A DNA stretch of 64,000 bases, taken from IMG/VR virus record IMGVR_UViG_3300023218_000040, positions 128,001-192,000 of that record; one strand, written 5' to 3'. Origin of the DNA: a virus. Taxonomy: Duplodnaviria; Caudoviricetes. The notes under the pieces are model-generated. The model did no database searches, had not been told where the DNA came from, and saw nothing but the letters and a program-made list of their open reading frames with translations. Numbering within the stretch: the first letter of the stretch is position 1; each line of letters starts with the position of its first letter. The position numbers were made by a program, and so were the translations under genes. Shown here one piece after another: positions 1 through 63,046 of this stretch.

Positions 1-453
1 GGAGGATGGTACGGCATAACAGCTTTTCTAATTCTGAGTAGAGACAAGCTACCGATTCAGAACATCCGGTCATATGATATTGATCCGTCGTGTGAAATCA
101 TAGCGGATAAAATCAACACCGCATGGGTATATGAGAAGTGGAAATTCAAAGCATTCACCGCTGATGTGAACCAGTTTAACTGGTACACGGAGTATGATTG
201 GATTCCAGATCTGGTTATCAACACTTCGGCTGAACACTTTGAGGAGGACGATTGGTATTACAGTCTGTTACCTCAGACATGTATTGCAGTTCAAGCTAAC
301 AATCAAGACAATGACTCACATACTAATCGAGTGGATACCTTGAAAGATATGGAGTCCAGGTTTCCCATGCGTGATGTTCTATACAACGGAGATCGGGTGT
401 ATGAGTATCCGGACAAAATGTATAGGAGATTCATGAGAATCGGTTTCAAATGA
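1..453 (+). CDS. Class I SAM-dependent methyltransferase-like protein, 5'-truncated by the window edge
   Basis: Frame 1 is open from base 1: GGWYGITAFL...RSYDIDPSCE...DLVINTSAEH; Gly-rich motif I, acidic YDID motif and NTSxEH motif. The track ORF 166..453 is only the C-terminal part. Confidence 0.55.
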   Translation, partial: GGWYGITAFLILSRDKLPIQNIRSYDIDPSCEIIADKINTAWVYEKWKFKAFTADVNQFNWYTEYDWIPDLVINTSAEHFEEDDWYYSLLPQTCIAVQANNQDNDSHTNRVDTLKDMESRFPMRDVLYNGDRVYEYPDKMYRRFMRIGFK

Positions 454-1067
454 TAGCCATCGACCTGTGTCAAACTGATGATCCGACAGCATGGAATATG
501 TTTCATGAGTTATGGATTGAAGCAAAAACAGGCTCAGATCGTAATGCCAGGAACTATGTGAACTTGAAAATTTTGGAGCACGATGCGTTCCATGTATTGA
601 TTGATGATAGGGCGATTGCTTTTGCTGGTGTATACAACGCTGGTATCTATCCGAACACAATAGCCCGTGTGCTGAACCGTGCATACTATGCTAGATCAGT
701 AAGACAATCAGGACTACCAACAAACAAGGACGGACGAAGAAAAGGAGGACTCCTATCTAAGTACGTTCTTCCAATGCAAGTGGAAGTCTGCCGACGAAAC
801 AGATCGGCTGCGTTCTTCTCAATCGAGTTCAATCGTCGCAGACGCACCATTCAGAATGTCACGTCCTGGATCAATGAGTACGACCGAACATATGAGGAGA
901 CATGGGAAGTTCTTTCGGACATGTATTTCACATGCCCAGAGTATGAAGATTGCATCAAGGATCCGACCTGTTGGCAAAATGTATCCGTGTTGAAGTTTCA
1001 AAGGGATTTCGAGTTCCCGTTACAGAGGAAAACTAGAGATGAGTGGAGACTATACTTTAGTAACTAA
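450..1067 (+). CDS. Hypothetical protein, possibly GNAT-like acyltransferase
   Basis: 205 aa; ATGA-coupled to upstream gene; IAFAGVY...ARVLNRAYY resembles GNAT-type beta-strand segments. Confidence 0.4.
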   Translation: MIAIDLCQTDDPTAWNMFHELWIEAKTGSDRNARNYVNLKILEHDAFHVLIDDRAIAFAGVYNAGIYPNTIARVLNRAYYARSVRQSGLPTNKDGRRKGGLLSKYVLPMQVEVCRRNRSAAFFSIEFNRRRRTIQNVTSWINEYDRTYEETWEVLSDMYFTCPEYEDCIKDPTCWQNVSVLKFQRDFEFPLQRKTRDEWRLYFSN

Positions 1068-1947
1068 GACCGCTCGTGCTATTGCTGACAGGGAATTCTT
1101 GGCATGGTACAACAGCGTTAATAACGTTTCATTGGCTGAAGCTAGAGCCATGTACATCCAGGATAACTTTCGTGACATGTACATTGACCGGTTCAGAAAT
1201 TGGGCAACTGGACATAGCACAAGTCCGATAATCGGTCTTGATGATTTTCCTAAAGTGGCCATCACGAATGCGATAACCCATTCCCTGGATTGCTTCGTAG
1301 CCAAGTGTCTCGGTCAAGGTCTAAATATTCGGGTCTTCCGTGGTGAATATCCGTACGTGAAAAGGCTTATGACGTTCCATGATAAGCCCCTGGTGTACTT
1401 GGATGATCAAGAAGTTCGTAGTTGTGATGCGGTGGTTCTATCGTATCCGTTTTCAGCCACCGGAGATAGACACTTCAGAACATTCGAACTGTTGAATGAA
1501 TGCTGTAAACTGAGAGTACCAGTATTCTTGGATTGTGCCTTTTGGCCTGCTTGTAGGGATGTACCTATTATCCTTGAGCACGAGTGCATCAGGCATGTAG
1601 CATTCAGCTTCAGTAAGTTGTTCCCGATGTCAGCGGTTAGGGTTGGCATCGAGTTCATGAGAGAGGACGTGCCACATCCAATGGATGTATTCAGCCTCGG
1701 TCACTACTACAACAGGCTGGGAGCGTATCTAGGTTATAAGTTGATGACACGTTTCTCACCCATGTATGTCACGAGTAGATATAGTGTAGCACAACATGCT
1801 ATTTGCAACGATTTAAAATTGATACCAAGCAAGACAGTAATCTTCGGATTGAGCCACGATTCAGTCTGGGATGAGTACTCACGTGAAGGTGTCATCAATA
1901 GACCATGCGTAACTAAAGGCATCGAGCGTTTGATGGGTGAAAAATGA
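1039..1947 (+). CDS. PLP-dependent aminotransferase-like protein (fold type I)
   Basis: LDCAF (PLP-binding Asp) and FSFSK (Schiff-base Lys) motifs followed by RVG. Confidence 0.6.
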   Translation: MSGDYTLVTKTARAIADREFLAWYNSVNNVSLAEARAMYIQDNFRDMYIDRFRNWATGHSTSPIIGLDDFPKVAITNAITHSLDCFVAKCLGQGLNIRVFRGEYPYVKRLMTFHDKPLVYLDDQEVRSCDAVVLSYPFSATGDRHFRTFELLNECCKLRVPVFLDCAFWPACRDVPIILEHECIRHVAFSFSKLFPMSAVRVGIEFMREDVPHPMDVFSLGHYYNRLGAYLGYKLMTRFSPMYVTSRYSVAQHAICNDLKLIPSKTVIFGLSHDSVWDEYSREGVINRPCVTKGIERLMGEK

Positions 1948-2690
1948 CAGACTTGACGCAACTTTTCCCTGGAAGAGACTTGAAGAGAGAGTGGAAAGAA
2001 CGATTTGGTTCCAAGGAGTTTGATGCCCCTGTTCGTGTGCTACCTTGGATTACGGTGGACACCGCTCGTTTGCAGGATTTCTATGAGAAGTGGAAGGGAC
2101 GTGATCATTCGGTATTCGAGGATGAGGTCATTGAGTATGCCTTTGGTGGAAGGTATTGCTCACCAGATGATTACTGGCCACTTGTTATTCATCACCCCAC
2201 AGACCTAGCGGTAGAGCTTCAGAGGCAACTGGATGAAGAACGTGGGGTGTCATGGTATGAACATCAGAAAGGACTATCTACCAAGAAGAGAATCAAGTCA
2301 CTCATTGATTTGAACAAGGACTATGATCCAATCATCGATGAGCGTAACTACACTAAGTTACCTGACCGATTGAATGAGACCTACATAGGTGAGTTGCTAG
2401 GACAGTTCAAAGCTACTCCGGTTAGGGCTAGGTTTGTCAAGCTTATGCCAGACCAAGAAGTAGGTGAGCATATCGATTATAGTCCGAAGTACGCATTGAA
2501 GGCACACATACCCGTATACACACATCCAGATGCAGTGCTTGGGTTTGAAGGACATGGCGACATACATTTGGTTCCAGGACATGCTTATGTGGTGAACACG
2601 GGTATTAAGCATTGGGCTAAGAACAACAGTAGAAAACAGCGAGTTCATTTAGTGGTCTCGCTTGACGGACAAGAGGACATAACATCATGA
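1944..2690 (+). CDS. Asp/Asn beta-hydroxylase-like 2OG-Fe(II) dioxygenase (paralog 1)
   Basis: RARFVKL..EHIDY (HxD), HIPV, NTGIKHWAKN...RVHLV. Confidence 0.75.
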   Translation: MTDLTQLFPGRDLKREWKERFGSKEFDAPVRVLPWITVDTARLQDFYEKWKGRDHSVFEDEVIEYAFGGRYCSPDDYWPLVIHHPTDLAVELQRQLDEERGVSWYEHQKGLSTKKRIKSLIDLNKDYDPIIDERNYTKLPDRLNETYIGELLGQFKATPVRARFVKLMPDQEVGEHIDYSPKYALKAHIPVYTHPDAVLGFEGHGDIHLVPGHAYVVNTGIKHWAKNNSRKQRVHLVVSLDGQEDITS

Positions 2691-3394
2691 GAAACGTGCT
2701 AGAAACAACGCAGGATCTTCCTCCTTTGGTAGAGAGACTGGATATCAAGGCTGATATCGGAAAGCTGTACGACCTTGCTAAGAAGGTCCACCTTGTGAAC
2801 TACAAGTACATACCAACGTTTCATTTTGAGAGCACACAGGAATCTCGAATCCATCTGTATGGTATTCGCAGCGGAATGCTGATCTCATCTCGTATGCAGG
2901 GCGGTGGGTATCAAGGATCCACCATGACTCTATCCGAAGAAGATGAGAAGCTGAGAATTAGAACCGAGTCCAGTCTAGAAGCGATTAAAGATTATCCAGA
3001 TCAGTACACAACAAGGACCAATATTTGCCTTGGATACGTGAATGATGTGATTGATTTCTTTCCAGAGTGCTGGAGAACTACGTTTTGGACTGAGACTCCT
3101 GTATACGGATACATTCCACATACCGACAACCCATCGGACAGTGCAGCCATCCATATCCCGTTGTACACCAATGCGTTTTGCTACATGGGCTATGAAACCC
3201 AACAGGTGTATCATCTACCAGCGGATGGTCATTGTTATTGGGTTAACACCCACATCCGCCACACTGCGTGGAATCATGGTAGCGAGCTACGCACACACCT
3301 ACGTATCAATCTACCTCGTGCTTGCTATGACAAGTACAAAAGCATGGAGAATGCGGTGATCAACTTCTCAGGCAAGTATCCAGATCCAGAATGA
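2687..3394 (+). CDS. Asp/Asn beta-hydroxylase-like 2OG-Fe(II) dioxygenase (paralog 2)
   Basis: PHTD, HIPLYTN, HLPADGHCYWVNT..HTAWNHG..RTHL. Confidence 0.75.
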   Translation: MRNVLETTQDLPPLVERLDIKADIGKLYDLAKKVHLVNYKYIPTFHFESTQESRIHLYGIRSGMLISSRMQGGGYQGSTMTLSEEDEKLRIRTESSLEAIKDYPDQYTTRTNICLGYVNDVIDFFPECWRTTFWTETPVYGYIPHTDNPSDSAAIHIPLYTNAFCYMGYETQQVYHLPADGHCYWVNTHIRHTAWNHGSELRTHLRINLPRACYDKYKSMENAVINFSGKYPDPE

Positions 3395-21490: not shown

Positions 21491-21860
21491 ACAGTTGCTT
21501 GAGCGAACACTTGAAGCTCTACGGACGGCGGTTCGATTCCGCCCATCTCCACTAAACGATGGACATAGAGTAGCAGTGAGTGTACACCGGTACTCTATTT
21601 TCATTAGCGGCAGATAACGCACAACTGCCACATCTCTGGGGATGCCCTGGTTTTGACGTGGTGATGGATGGCTAGTAGTGAGACTGTCGGGTTAGACTAC
21701 CCCCGTAAAGGTTCACCCAAAGTATCTGCAAACGATGCTGTATATGACGAGGAGGTTCTTCCTCTCGCTGCATAAGCGGGAGCCAAGAATTCCTACTGCG
21801 GCTTAACAACCCGCAACGTCCGGGGTCTAACGAGCCTTGTTACCAAAATCCTAGAAAGGG
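21491..21860 (+). ncRNA. ssrA: Circularly permuted two-piece tmRNA
   Basis: Acceptor piece first (T-arm GGCGG-TTCGATT-CCGCC, CATCTCC-A ending 21551), intervening segment, then coding piece from GGGGATG (21638); stem GGGGAUG/CAUCUCC has G3.U70 and A73; tag ORF 21728-21775 ANDAVYDEEVLPLAA*; piece boundaries approximate. Confidence 0.92.
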
Positions 21861-51891: not shown

Positions 51892-52411
51892 CCTAGTAGA
51901 AATTGCTTGACATTTGCTTTTTACGCTGTATAATGTGTACCGTTGAGTTAGAGAAAGCAAGAGGAATTCGTAATGAGCAACACCCTTACTCGCAACGATG
52001 TCCTTGACCTGATTGGTGACGGCACCTTCTTCAGTGTCGAGTTCACCAAGCGTCCGAAGCCCCTTGGCAAGCGTGCCCTTGCCCGAGGCGAGGTCCAGCC
52101 GACCGAGGGTGAGTACCGGGTCTATCCTACGTGTCGCACGGGCGTCAAGAAGTACGTTACAGGCGTCGGCAAGAAGTTCGATGATGGCGACAAGAACATC
52201 GTCACGGTGTTCGTGTTCAAGGAGGGCATCAAGGTCGATGACCGTACCGAGATGACCGCCGAGACCGGTGCCTACCGCTCCATCCCCTGCGAGAACGTGA
52301 AGGTTCTCAGGACGCACAGCAAGACCTTCGAGGTCGTGGACGGTTCCCTAGTAGAAATTGCTTGACATTTGCTTTTTACGCTGTATAATGTGTACCGTTG
52401 AGTTAGAGAAA
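51892..52411 (+). repeat. 65-bp perfect direct repeat carrying a sigma70 promoter (51892-51956 and 52347-52411)
   Basis: CCTAGTAGAAATTGC-TTGACA-16 nt-TATAAT-GTGTACCGTTGAGTTAGAGAAA, continuing with one mismatch into CAAGAGGAA RBS. Confidence 0.95.
51973..52365 (+). CDS. Hypothetical early protein
   Basis: GAGGA RBS; last codons (SLVEIA*) come from repeat copy 2. Confidence 0.75.
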   Translation: MSNTLTRNDVLDLIGDGTFFSVEFTKRPKPLGKRALARGEVQPTEGEYRVYPTCRTGVKKYVTGVGKKFDDGDKNIVTVFVFKEGIKVDDRTEMTAETGAYRSIPCENVKVLRTHSKTFEVVDGSLVEIA

Positions 52412-52427
52412 ACAAGAGGAAGATGAA

Positions 52428-52703
52428 ATGAACAAGTCCAAAGAGCTTTACATCGAGCCCGGTGCCAAGAATGGCTGGTTCGAGCCCAGACTGTCCAAGA
52501 AGGGGCAGTCCGGTATTGTCACGACCATCAGCTATCAGGGTCTCGTAGACATTTTGAAGGAGGCTGGTGTCATCGGTAGCGACCAAGAGGCAGAGCGCCT
52601 CCGCATCACCCAGCAGGGCATCGATGTGTTCCTGGATGGCCCTCCACGCACCGTGGGTGAAGCCATAACCCAGCGCACTCGTAATCGAGAGTTCCGGCGA
52701 TGA
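52428..52703 (+). CDS. Hypothetical early protein
   Basis: GAGGA RBS after repeat copy 2. Confidence 0.7.
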   Translation: MNKSKELYIEPGAKNGWFEPRLSKKGQSGIVTTISYQGLVDILKEAGVIGSDQEAERLRITQQGIDVFLDGPPRTVGEAITQRTRNREFRR

Positions 52704-52791
52704 GCGACAAGACCATCCTTCTGGAGCCGAACGAGCGAGATAACTGACTCTATCCTCGCAAAGATATTCGGCAGAATATGGACTAAATCTA

Positions 52792-52820
52792 TTGACTTCC
52801 AATTCAAGGAGTGATAAATA
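52792..52820 (+). promoter_or_regulatory. Promoter of the atypical tRNA(GUA)
   Basis: TTGACT-17 nt-TAAATA, 12 nt before the RNA 5' end. Confidence 0.65.
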
Positions 52821-52832
52821 TACAAAACACAT

Positions 52833-52921
52833 GGGTGTTTTTCCCCACTCTGGTCTGTAAAACCAGCGTCAAAAAACCGTGGGGTGGTAGACGGGAGGTT
52901 CGATTCCTTGAACACCCACCA
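52833..52921 (+). tRNA. Atypical D-armless tRNA-like RNA with GUA (Tyr) anticodon, 8/4 acceptor/T geometry
   Basis: GGGTGTTT/GAACACCC + A-CCA; anticodon arm CTGGT-CTGTAAA-ACCAG; variable stem CGTC/GACG; T loop TTCGATT; only 9 nt between acceptor and anticodon stems. Confidence 0.75.
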
Positions 52922-52924
52922 AAT

Positions 52925-52950
52925 AAAAAGGCTCCTTCGGGAGCCTTTTT
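52925..52950 (+). terminator. Rho-independent terminator
   Basis: AAAAAGGCTCC-TTCG-GGAGCCTTTTT. Confidence 0.9.
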
Positions 52951-53032
52951 CATTTGTGACACAGTTCACAGACATTTCCTGAAGAATAGTGTAGGATACA
53001 TCTATCGACCCAACAACCATGAGGAGATAGAG

Positions 53033-53260
53033 ATGTACAAGGACGCTTACGCAATTCTGGAGGAGGAGTCGCCGTGCGACACGTGCGAGAACTTCATGCA
53101 GTGCCGTTACGAGCCGCTCGCCTGCAAGGACTTCCTGGACTACACGAACGACGGCAAACTGGTCCGCTACGACGACGAGGGCAACGAGATCGAGGGCAAC
53201 AAGGAGCCGAAGCGACGCTACTACAAAGTGCTCTTCCCGAATGACCAGATCACCGCCTGA
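53033..53260 (+). CDS. Small Cys-containing hypothetical protein
   Basis: GAGGAG RBS; PCDTC....QC......C..F..Y. Confidence 0.65.
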   Translation: MYKDAYAILEEESPCDTCENFMQCRYEPLACKDFLDYTNDGKLVRYDDEGNEIEGNKEPKRRYYKVLFPNDQITA

Positions 53261-53266
53261 AAACAC

Positions 53267-53295
53267 TTGACAAACGGGATAGAGGAGAGTATAGT
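53267..53295 (+). promoter_or_regulatory. Sigma70-type promoter upstream of an ORF-free structured region
   Basis: TTGACA-17 nt-TATAGT. Confidence 0.7.
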
Positions 53296-53301
53296 ACACA
53301 C

Positions 53302-53936
53302 CATAGCAGAGAATACTATACAAAGAACCACGGATTCACAGGGATTAATAGGGTTGCGTTCGAATAATACACGCACCCGGCGACCTGGGGTAACGTCGCC
53401 ATTCAAAGACCCCCTTGACATTTGGGTGGCTCTACGGACCTACCCGGCGACCTGAGCACGTCGCCTGACGAATAAAAGGCTCCCCGAATTTTTGAATTCG
53501 GTGGCATCTTCGACTGAGACGGTACCGTGATACAGCACGGGGAAAGTGGAGAATAACTGTACGCCAACGTAGTCGAACCTCTGCCACCGACTTACAATCG
53601 GAGACGTACATCGTTTCCGGGCGACCTCGGCAAGTCGCCTGACGAAAAAACTGCCCTTTGAACACGGTCTTTTGTTTCTGGATTCGCCCATGGGATGACC
53701 GGGAAATCATAACCGGGTGTTAGCGAGCCTTGGGAAGAGACATCGAATGTAATGGAGTCCGACTAGCCATACAGTGTCGGTGACAGGCTGGAAAGACAGC
53801 GGTTTGAGACAAGTCGGGCCAAGAGCGGCCAACCTGACAGCCGGTGTGAGTCCGGGCAGCCCGACGACTTGAATTGCAGGGTGCCGCACCTGGGAACAGG
53901 TGGCCGCTGGAGGCTCGATCCCTCAACTCTGCTCCA
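53302..53936 (+). ncRNA. Candidate large structured ncRNA (~630 nt) ending in a tRNA-like domain with CCA
   Basis: No credible ORF; three GGCGAC/GTCGCC hairpins; nested stems 53498-53506/53582-53590 and 53509-53515/53571-53577; 3' stem GCAGGGT/ACTCTGC + T-CCA. Confidence 0.6.
53379..53646 (+). repeat. Three GGCGAC-N8-10-GTCGCC hairpin repeats (53379-53400, 53446-53465, 53620-53639); last two followed by TGACGAA
   Basis: Direct inspection. Confidence 0.85.
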
Positions 53937-53965
53937 ATCAACGCCAAATTCGGAGATAAGACCTA

Positions 53966-54295
53966 ATGGCAACAAAGACAACCAAACTGGCTGGACCCGA
54001 TAGCAAAGGCAACTACAAGGTGCTCTCGGTCACCAATCATCTCGGCGTGAAGCCCGGTGAGGTTTACACCGAACGCTATGTTCGAAACCACATCATGCAC
54101 TCCAACGGTCCCAACGTGACCATCGTCCAGCCGAAGTACGAGGGCATGGTCGAGAAGCAGCGGAAGTGCTTCACGGATAAGCCCGTCAACCATGACTTCT
54201 GGTCGAGCCCATTCGCTGAGGAAGTAGATGGCAGCCAAGAGAGTCTGGATGCAGCTTACGCAAAGTTCGCTGCTTTTCTGAAAGAAAATTCTTGA
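53966..54295 (+). CDS. Hypothetical protein
   Basis: GGAG RBS; C-ending codons like other early genes. Confidence 0.7.
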   Translation: MATKTTKLAGPDSKGNYKVLSVTNHLGVKPGEVYTERYVRNHIMHSNGPNVTIVQPKYEGMVEKQRKCFTDKPVNHDFWSSPFAEEVDGSQESLDAAYAKFAAFLKENS

Positions 54296-54326
54296 TAAAA
54301 AGAAGATATCTTGATAGGATGTCAGT

Positions 54327-54656
54327 ATGATTCTAGTATTCACCATCGCCAACGGACGGACTCGCATTATCACTGGTGTGACGAATTTCTATGCGTTTGG
54401 TGATACTTTCGTCTTCAACCGTGAGGGTCAGAAGCAGCCCGTCAATGTACCGAACAACTACAATTTCGGTCTTGCGCTGGATATTTCATTTTTACTGAAG
54501 CGGTACTCAGCGATCTACGCCATTTGTGGTTTGGACGATTGCAACAAGTTTGGTGTTGGGAATGGTTTGATCAAGTGGATCGCTTGGGGTGGTGAATTCA
54601 TCGCAGGCATGACCGAGGATGAGGCACACAAGTTCCTCAAGGAGAACCCGTTATGA
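54327..54656 (+). CDS. Hypothetical protein
   Basis: AGGA RBS. Confidence 0.55.
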   Translation: MILVFTIANGRTRIITGVTNFYAFGDTFVFNREGQKQPVNVPNNYNFGLALDISFLLKRYSAIYAICGLDDCNKFGVGNGLIKWIAWGGEFIAGMTEDEAHKFLKENPL

Positions 54657-54880
54657 ACGTGACAACGACCGCTGAGGAGACATTCACCCTTGAGGACAGC
54701 CAGGACATGGCGCTTATGGTCTACCGTCGATTCGGCTACGATCTGTGCGCCGCCACGGCTGCCTGGAGGCGCATGCTTCAGAACAATGCCACTCGTGGGG
54801 ATTATCTGGATCTCCTAATCGGTGCTGCGGCTCGTCAACCGGCAAATCGTGACATCGCTTCTATTCTCAGAAAGGATTAA
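54653..54880 (+). CDS. Hypothetical protein
   Basis: AAGGAG RBS, ATGA overlap. Confidence 0.65.
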   Translation: MNVTTTAEETFTLEDSQDMALMVYRRFGYDLCAATAAWRRMLQNNATRGDYLDLLIGAAARQPANRDIASILRKD

Positions 54881-56007
54881 ACCACAACCAGTCCGTGCGA
54901 GGGCAGTAGCTCTCGCAGGACGTAATGACGATAGTAGCTGGCTGCTTTCATGAATCGGTAGACCGGTAAGTTTAGAATATCGGAACTGGTCTTCATATTC
55001 TTGAAGTTGTTCCACTGCTTATGCCAGTGAACTGAATTATACTCTGGCATTCCATCCTGAAACCCAAATTCGAACCTACGTGCTGCTTTCTTCCAGGCTT
55101 CGGCTCTGGTTTTTTTGTTACCCACGGTAGCCAAGATCCTCTCGATGCGCTGCTTGTGTCCCAAGAACCGCATCTTGCTCTTGCGATCATAAACCTCGGG
55201 ATGAACATCTACATATTCAACTAGCTTGTCATAAACTGTCTCACACGCTTGCATGTATGTCTGTGGATTATTTCTCCAAATGCGTTCTGCATTCTTTGGA
55301 TATTCTGGAATATAGCTCCACTCCAAGAATGGGATATCGGGATACGTAGATACTCCACCGTGGCCTAGTGCTCCACTATAGATTTCACTGACACCACTAA
55401 TCACGGAACGAATATTAGACAGCAGACCACCTTGGTAGCCGTATTCGTTGAACCATTCTGAAATAGTACGACCCAAAGCCATACGTACTACTTCTTCTGA
55501 TTGTCTTAGCTTGAAGGAATCTCCACGAACACGATTTCGACGGGAAGACACTCCAGAGAATCTATAATGAGCGAAGGTATCCTGGAATGTATGAAGACTG
55601 ATGCCCATCAATTCTGCATGGTAGTCAGCTTGGCAGTTGATACTGTTTTGTATCATCTCTTGTGCGATAAGAGAATTCTTTCTACAGAGGAGACGTTCGG
55701 TCCACGCTTCGCCCTGATTACCTGGAATGAAATGAAATGGAACCCAGATGAAACGTTGGTCATCCTCATCTCTATTTCTTAGATTGCCAGGGTGATGAGC
55801 GGTCGGGATAGCGACTATTTTTCCGCCATCCTCGTGATCACCGATTTCACGAGCGGTATTATCATCAACGTACTGGGTCGAGTACGCTATGATGTGTGAA
55901 GTTTCAGCATTGATCCCAGCGATACGTGATAAACAATACGTACCGTAATAATGCATGTCTACCTGCATGGGCCTTTTTCTTGTTATTTGCCGTGGCTCTA
56001 TGGCCAC
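54877..56007 (-). CDS. DUF6765-like hypothetical protein (possible Zn phospholipase-C-like fold)
   Basis: DMHYYGTY..SR.AG......IAY..QYVD, TAHH, PFHF.PG, LH..QDTFAH, GH. Confidence 0.55.
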   Translation of the reverse strand: MAIEPRQITRKRPMQVDMHYYGTYCLSRIAGINAETSHIIAYSTQYVDDNTAREIGDHEDGGKIVAIPTAHHPGNLRNRDEDDQRFIWVPFHFIPGNQGEAWTERLLCRKNSLIAQEMIQNSINCQADYHAELMGISLHTFQDTFAHYRFSGVSSRRNRVRGDSFKLRQSEEVVRMALGRTISEWFNEYGYQGGLLSNIRSVISGVSEIYSGALGHGGVSTYPDIPFLEWSYIPEYPKNAERIWRNNPQTYMQACETVYDKLVEYVDVHPEVYDRKSKMRFLGHKQRIERILATVGNKKTRAEAWKKAARRFEFGFQDGMPEYNSVHWHKQWNNFKNMKTSSDILNLPVYRFMKAASYYRHYVLRELLPSHGLVVV

Positions 56008-62967: not shown

Positions 62968-63042
62968 GGCCGGGTGGCAGAGTCTGGTTATGCGGTGGCC
63001 TGCAAAGCCATGTCAACGTCGGTTCAAATCCGACTCCGGCCT
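62968..63042 (+). tRNA. tRNA-Cys(GCA), CCA not encoded
   Basis: GGCCGGG/TCCGGCC, U73, GTGGC-CTGCAAA-GCCAT, GGTTCAAATCC. Confidence 0.92.
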
Positions 63043-63046
63043 CAAA

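Follow-up and report, generated by a model that had tools for sequence, protein, structure and literature searches.

The 61-nt module found at positions 53876-53936 of a jumbo phage sequence associates an acceptor stem, a T-like arm and an encoded CCA with a single capped arm, which stands where a tRNA has its D and anticodon arms. This module is not a chance fold and, in the homologous sequences compared, it is conserved with compensatory changes in all three helices. Considering its role, there is an even chance that it is a mimic of the tRNA top half, by which RNase P and 3' trimming would separate the large RNA lying upstream from the mRNA lying downstream and release a CCA-ended mini-RNA.

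The window, i.e., the whole stretch of 64,000 nucleotides analysed, comes from a virus record of IMG/VR (204 kb, with an estimated completeness of about 55%), of which it covers bases 128001-192000. As well as a permuted tmRNA gene, the window contains genes for an RNA ligase, a ClpP-like protease and a DUF6765 protein. Over the 204-kb record, 12 tRNA genes are called by ARAGORN, nine of them with an encoded CCA; the tRNAs without it, namely Cys, Arg-CCT and Ala-GGC, are located at 62968-63043 of the window and at 196221-196295 and 201829-201902 of the record. The locus of interest begins after a small ORF ending at 53260 and comprises successively a promoter (53267-53295), about 635 nt without any credible ORF and a small protein gene starting at 53966 (Table 1). 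Throughout, L-numbers designate the loci compared, mainly metagenome contigs of uncultured phages, L053 being the tRNA region of phage T4.

Table 1. Features of the locus and of its surroundings (window coordinates), followed by the homologous modules (coordinates of each locus).
Feature	Position	Strand	Remarks
Sigma-70-like promoter	53267..53295	+	TTGACA, 17 nt, TATAGT; 11 of 12 consensus matches
ORF-free structured RNA	53302..53875	+	shortened relative of the 0.95-1.1-kb RNAs in L003, L009, L032 and L033
Acceptor stem	53876-53882 with 53926-53932	+	7 bp, one G-U
Acceptor 5' strand	53876..53882	+	49 of 49 cells paired in the 7 tabulated lineages; 6 of 7 positions vary
Central arm replacing D and anticodon arms	53883..53907	+	9 pairs, C-C mismatch, one bulged G
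GGAA tetraloop capping the central arm	53893-53896	+	
1-nt linker (T), then G facing A53925	53908..53909	+	place of the fifth T-stem pair
T-like arm	53910..53924	+	4-bp stem GAGG/CCTC (53910-53913 with 53921-53924)
T-like loop	53914-53920	+	7 nt, CTCGATC; begins with C where tRNAs have T54
Acceptor 3' strand	53926..53932	+	from fold and covariation
Discriminator T and encoded CCA	53933 and 53934-53936	+	read from sequence
Spacer, 29 nt	53937..53965	+	conserved leader and GGAG ribosome-binding site (53952-53955)
Small conserved protein gene	53966..54295	+	109 aa here, 71-81 aa in relatives
Permuted tmRNA gene (two-piece type)	21491-21775		95 bits to RF04321
L002 module			identical; surrounding 711 nt 99% identical
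L009 module	2160-2217		
L028 module	320-380		
L017 module	882-943	-	
L029 module	266-326		identical to L032 2976-3036
L003 module	2890-2974		
L033 module	1728-1815		
L054 module	2410-2470		
L059 module	2223-2301		
L030/L031 module			cut copy, acceptor 5' strand missing

The MFE fold of the 61 nt gives, in this order, the acceptor stem, the GGAA-capped arm, the T-like arm, a single A, the acceptor 3' strand, a T and the CCA; both the sequence and the overall architecture are as the initial annotation had described them. Between the acceptor and the T arm, that annotation had placed a single GGAA-capped arm with a GCC/GGC register, a GC bulge and a 5-nt linker. The single capped arm stands, but the register had to be revised because L009 and L029 cannot form it, and covariation backs a helix flush with the acceptor stem, in which 53883-53884 pair with 53906-53907 and 53886-53892 with 53897-53904, followed by a linker of 1 nt. 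The junction of the three helices is as such nearly devoid of unpaired linkers. The position of the fifth T-stem pair is occupied by G-A in five lineages; L003 has a T-A pair there and L033 an A-A. In all homologues, C is the first base of the T loop. That the module cannot decode, as first proposed, holds across the lineages: no homologue possesses a 7-nt anticodon loop, the arm being capped by GGAA or CAAC, and the GGAA tetraloop is retained in most lineages.

Respective to chance, the folding energy of the 61 nt is ordinary (z = -0.82) and is therefore no proof by itself. A top-half descriptor for tRNAs, defined as a 7-bp stem, a T stem of at least 4 bp, a 7-nt NTCRANN loop and N-CCA, matches six sites in the window, i.e., four ARAGORN-called tRNAs, a rewired tRNA-Tyr and the 61-nt module, against a mean of 0.015 matches per 64-kb window in 200 dinucleotide shuffles. 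Over the 204-kb record, 10 sites are found (eight ARAGORN-called tRNAs, the rewired Tyr and the module), and the module is present there in one copy as judged by a covariance model trained on four homologues. In MFE folds of whole transcripts, the module is kept in one out of six, such folds being uninformative.

The entry to relatives of the module was the downstream small protein, the homologues residing on metagenome contigs with the same gene order, which includes DUF6765 and ClpP on the opposite strand; L017 was added by a pattern scan of metagenome contigs. Nine further lineages, all of uncultured phage contigs, have a homologue of the module, and in each of them it lies 3' of an ORF-free RNA of 0.6-1.1 kb. 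When folded alone, seven out of eight homologues recover the three-helix design, and the covariance model scores 40-88 bits in L002, L009, L017, L028, L029, L032, L054 and L059, and about 21 bits on the long-arm forms. As for the search space covered further, blastn and tblastn against 50,697 phage records gave no match to the window RNA, the L003 RNA or the small protein, pattern scans and protein-anchored scans of IMG/VR returned no relatives, and the T-arm pattern was matched 15 times in 185,579 bacterial genomes, with none of these matches being a homologue by the model (best 25.7 bits).

Considering the five distinct single-arm sequences, 97% of the cells are paired, against 37-51% when the partners are slid; four pairs are changed on both sides, two of them in the central arm, and the covariation score was reached by none of 500 shuffles. 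The sample being small and the sequences related, this covariation is supportive and not a formal test. In the acceptor stem, the pairing counts of Table 1 come from a hand-checked table of the 7 lineages. The T stem of L033 reads GGGG/CCCC as the result of a compensated change from A-U to G-C. The central arm is longer in L003, L033 and L059, and the two long-arm sequences differ from each other by several double changes in this arm.

At its 3' end, the module exhibits a short closing stem followed by NCCA in seven lineages, six of which have T as discriminator and the other, L030, has A. The short closing stem is of 7 or 8 bp in five CCA lineages, with 8 bp in L003 and L033, and of 6 bp with an internal loop in L059. 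In L017, L029/L032 and L054/L055, on the other hand, four more nucleotides are paired on each side to give an 11-bp closing stem with no free CCA, and this four-pair extension itself covaries (G-C in one, T-A in the other). In these extended-stem, CCA-less lineages, the two hairpins are almost unchanged, the T loop of L054 being of 6 nt. In the seven CCA lineages, NCCA is invariant while 6 of the 7 acceptor pairs, the discriminator and the following bases vary, and L009 retains the CCA though the sequence 3' of its module is unrelated. Which of the CCA and extended forms is ancestral is not resolved by the small-protein tree. A shifted 5-bp acceptor with ACCA within the extended stems of L017 and L029 was considered and rejected, L054 being without it. 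In the distant lineage L056-L058, a plain hairpin is found in place of the module (L056:603-640); the small gene is still there with its leader, and a block of the upstream RNA also persists.

Promoters equivalent to that of the window are present 5' of the RNA in L009 (12 of 12 consensus matches) and in L003. For the upstream RNA as for the module, no Rfam family was matched in the window region, L003 or L009, either at gathering threshold or at E <= 10. The long upstream RNAs carry conserved blocks, the window version being shorter and without the 5' module of the long forms, and the T arm with its 5' CGCT flank constitutes the most conserved block of the whole RNA. On the 3' side, the small gene directly follows the module in every module-bearing lineage except L009, and its leader is conserved across lineages. 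The neighbouring small proteins are 52-57% identical among the lineages with compensatory changes in the module. No Pfam or PHROG family was found for the small protein, its AlphaFold model (mean pLDDT 67) has no PDB fold match at E <= 0.001, and it has no named neighbour in the Atlas. For this protein, which starts MATKTTKLAGPD, at least 29 relatives were found at E <= 0.001; in the loci retrieved, its gene comes after the large RNA.

The L009 locus has an insertion between the module and the small gene, made of a 69-codon ORF and a promoter-like site; the module remains attached to the large RNA, 300 nt upstream of the gene, and the gene keeps its leader. Because this insertion leaves the module with the RNA, the module belongs to the upstream RNA and not to the downstream gene, which bears out the earlier assignment to the non-coding RNA. 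In L003 and L009, the first terminator-like site on the + strand after the module comes after the small gene; with a promoter before the RNA and a terminator only after the gene, the RNA, the module and the gene therefore form one transcription unit. Neither a promoter nor a terminator was found on the + strand of the window spacer (53936-53966). From the layout of the sequence only, the module is placed as end-processing elements are, i.e., at the end of a longer non-coding RNA within one transcription unit.

Bacterial RNase P recognises its substrates by a stack of 12 layers between the T loop and position +1, a T loop of 7 nt, NCCA on the 3' side and a leader that is A/U-rich and single-stranded with a T at -1, and there are precedents for tRNA-like processing signals and for non-tRNA substrates of this enzyme (PMC4919922). 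The geometry of the module fits this measure, with 7 + 5 stacked layers, a 7-nt T loop and a 3' NCCA, and its leader is A/U-rich and single-stranded with a T at -1. In the proposed pathway, (i) host RNase P would cut at 53875/53876 and thereby generate the 3' end of the large RNA, (ii) an endonucleolytic cleavage in the A/U-rich spacer would free the mRNA and exonuclease trimming would halt at the encoded CCA (53936), and (iii) the 61-nt CCA-ended RNA would be released. The freed mRNA would have a leader of 29 nt. The encoded CCA of 9 of the 12 phage tRNAs points to such exonucleolytic 3' trimming back to the CCA. We infer all of these enzymatic steps, as well as any further role of the released RNA.

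The strongest argument that the sequence offers for processing is the invariant CCA in seven lineages amid a changing stem, discriminator and flank, and the layout of promoter, large RNA, module and small gene, together with this NCCA, is consistent with a tag for RNase P and 3' processing. Several elements speak against it, namely (i) the CCA-less 11-bp stems, (ii) the module-less L056-L058, (iii) the C at the start of the T loop, (iv) the ordinary folding energy, (v) an acceptor departing from 7 bp in L003, L033 and L059, (vi) the 6-nt T loop of L054, (vii) the retention of the module in one of six whole-transcript folds, and (viii) the conservation of the T arm and its flank far beyond what a mere shape signal would need. 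Given the CCA-less and the module-less lineages, tRNA-type processing cannot be the universal role of the module.

The extended-stem lineages, together with hairpins that are near-invariant, keep alive a first alternative, which is possible though somewhat doubtful: the module may be a three-way junction with a structural role in the large RNA or long leader, whose closing stem, GNRA-capped arm and T-loop-like hairpin would make up a domain for tertiary folding or for binding of a factor. This domain would stay attached, its likeness to tRNA would be a partial one, and no tRNA enzyme would act on it. The CCA-less, extended-stem form is indeed found in three lineages with the hairpins almost unchanged; the T arm with its CGCT flank ranks as the top-conserved block of the RNA, and the GGAA tetraloop of most lineages, the C at position 54 of the T loop and the few unpaired linkers all go in the same direction. 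This alternative nevertheless has to face the invariance of NCCA after a 6-8-bp stem in seven lineages, L009 with its changed context included, as well as stacking lengths that are tRNA-like and a distant lineage in which the upstream-RNA block persists without the module.

A role in trans of the released mini-RNA is an unlikely reading, where the RNA would either be aminoacylated thanks to the identity of its acceptor, or soak up a host factor or defence enzyme recognising the acceptor/T half or the CCA. In bacteria, the glycine set consists of U73, G1-C72 and C2-G71, and U73 alone gives cysteine identity to minihelices (PMC9976931). The window, L009, L028 and L003 all carry G1-C72, C2-G71 and U73; the acceptor end most similar to that of the module among the ARAGORN-called tRNAs is that of the phage tRNA-Gly, and the best match of the covariance model in the T4 region, with filters off, is likewise a tRNA-Gly (L053:3292-3365), with a weak 16 bits. 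The strong conservation of the T-arm sequence further suggests a specific partner. However, the discriminator is A in L030, position 3:70 varies, and the three CCA-less lineages could not be charged; besides, no gene of FemAB, LPG-synthase type, TROVE or CCA-adding function was found in the 204-kb record, the completeness of which is about 55%. The more elaborate version of this reading, which can be given little credence, would have the module cut out as a stable CCA-ended mini-tRNA, for glycine-type charging in a non-ribosomal use or as a decoy of the tRNA top half, its source RNA then representing a new ornate class of phage RNA.

It is highly unlikely that the module acts in cis on the translation or stability of the small-protein mRNA, as a structured leader domain upstream of the ribosome-binding site: it lies 29 nt 5' of the start codon and is directly followed by a conserved leader in all lineages but one, yet the L009 gene has its own promoter-like site and keeps the leader without the module, and L056-L058 retain both gene and leader in its absence. 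It is hardly credible that the module is what remains of a tRNA gene in decay, or a tRNA 3' end copied as an attachment site, and is functionless as RNA: the region is rich in tRNAs and the acceptor end resembles that of tRNA-Gly, but both acceptor strands are present, compensatory changes affect all three helices while the neighbouring protein is only 52-57% identical across lineages, and the same non-cloverleaf design recurs in nine other lineages.

Respective to known classes of RNA, the module shares with canonical bacterial and phage tRNAs a 7-bp acceptor stacked on a T arm, a 7-nt loop with UCGA and a discriminator followed by CCA and, as for phage tRNAs, it is sited among tRNA genes. 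It differs from them by the C at position 54, the G-A at the fifth T-stem pair and the lack of both a D arm and an anticodon loop; all 12 ARAGORN-called phage tRNAs have GGTTCRA, whereas the T loop of the module starts with C. A search with RF00005, whose gathering score is 29 bits, found nothing in 52000-55000 at E <= 10, and the module did not reach E <= 1 when the full record was searched; ARAGORN made no call on the module. With a single arm bearing a 4-nt loop, no D arm, no 7-nt anticodon loop and both RF00005 and ARAGORN silent, the identity of tRNA was rejected.

Phages encode tmRNAs, the tRNA-like domain of which combines, as in the module, an acceptor, a T arm and CCA with a long helix at the place of the anticodon arm. 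In contrast to tmRNA, the module has no analogue of the D loop, its T loop is non-canonical and its stem does not bring together the two extremities of the full RNA. The tmRNA identity was rejected, as there is no G3-U70 (3:70 being A-U, G-C or C-G) and the acceptor stem is local; in the window, the tmRNA models match only 21491-21775 and not the module. RNase P RNA was likewise rejected as the identity of the module, and so were an attachment-site remnant and a pseudogene, given both acceptor strands and the covariation in all three helices. As for a mimic of the YrlA-type Y RNAs, neither a TROVE gene in the 204-kb record (about 55% complete) nor an Rfam match was found.

Among phage RNAs, rnaC and rnaD of T4 (species 1 and 2) are also stable, non-decoding RNAs whose genes lie beside phage tRNA genes. 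In rnaC, the T arm lies next to the 3' closing strand; this T arm is the canonical GGGTTCGAATCCC, unlike that of the module, and there is no encoded CCA. Both are free-standing genes, of 139 and 119 nt, with folds that differ from the module, and the module covariance model with filters off yields on rnaC and rnaD only a 6-bit T-arm fragment on rnaC. No such element in phages was described in the literature covered by full-text searches.

Outside phages, mascRNA and menRNA, at the 3' ends of MALAT1 and MEN-beta, and the t-elements of plant mitochondria are other small non-decoding tRNA-like folds, which end a long non-coding RNA or lie between transcripts. The size of mascRNA is about 61 nt. 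These elements are eukaryotic or organellar, mascRNA being a near-complete cloverleaf to which CCA is added after cleavage, whereas the module belongs to a bacterial virus, its D and anticodon arms are fused into a capped helix, its CCA is encoded and an mRNA follows. At mascRNA/menRNA and t-elements, the ends are made by RNase P and RNase Z (PMC4919922). The 3' tRNA-like structures of TYMV, BMV and TMV resemble the module by a CCA end closing a long RNA with pseudoknot-like modules upstream, e.g., the upstream pseudoknot domain of TMV, but their acceptor is formed by a pseudoknot, they are aminoacylated and they end an RNA genome, while the acceptor of the module is a plain helix in the transcript of a DNA phage.

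tRNA-shaped signals ending long non-coding RNAs are known in mammals and plant mitochondria, and what would be new here is the setting in a bacterial virus together with the architecture. If the module is cut as predicted by the processing reading, the phage would use the tRNA-maturation enzymes of its host to punctuate a transcript made of a structured RNA and an mRNA, and the precise ends with the co-released small RNA would provide a handle on a family of 0.6-1.1-kb phage RNAs without Rfam model. The module also joins the anticodon-less tRNA look-alikes of large phages, a functional puzzle since the species 1 and 2 RNAs of T4. The CCA-ended and the extended-stem lineages offer a natural contrast, i.e., a ready-made experiment.

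Some further observations concern the neighbouring RNAs. At 52833-52921 of the window lies a rewired tRNA-Tyr(GTA)-like gene, missed by ARAGORN, which has a weak tRNA-Sec match (24.8 bits) and passes the top-half descriptor; in L003 and L009, a canonical tRNA-Tyr occupies the same relative place. A second odd Tyr-like, tRNA-shaped sequence with CCA is present at L009:940-1027, with no call by ARAGORN, directly 3' of the canonical tRNA-Tyr (845-929). What the window segment 53302-53875 of the large RNA has in common with the related RNAs is limited to the GGATTCGCCC block, a GGCGAC hairpin accompanied by GACGAA-A-rich modules, and a further block around 53821-53856. The idea that the conserved GGATTCG block might form a kissing pair with the T arm was considered and rejected, the block being invariant while the T loop varies, i.e., without covariation. 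The long RNA forms start with a conserved 5' module (L003:1942-2050 and the same region of L033, L009 and L032), in which four segments are complementary in interleaved order, namely a purine-rich GAGAGA..GAGG, a GC-rich strand, a CCTCC..TCTCTCC strand and a GC-rich partner. This 5' module, absent from the window RNA, is a candidate H-type pseudoknot.
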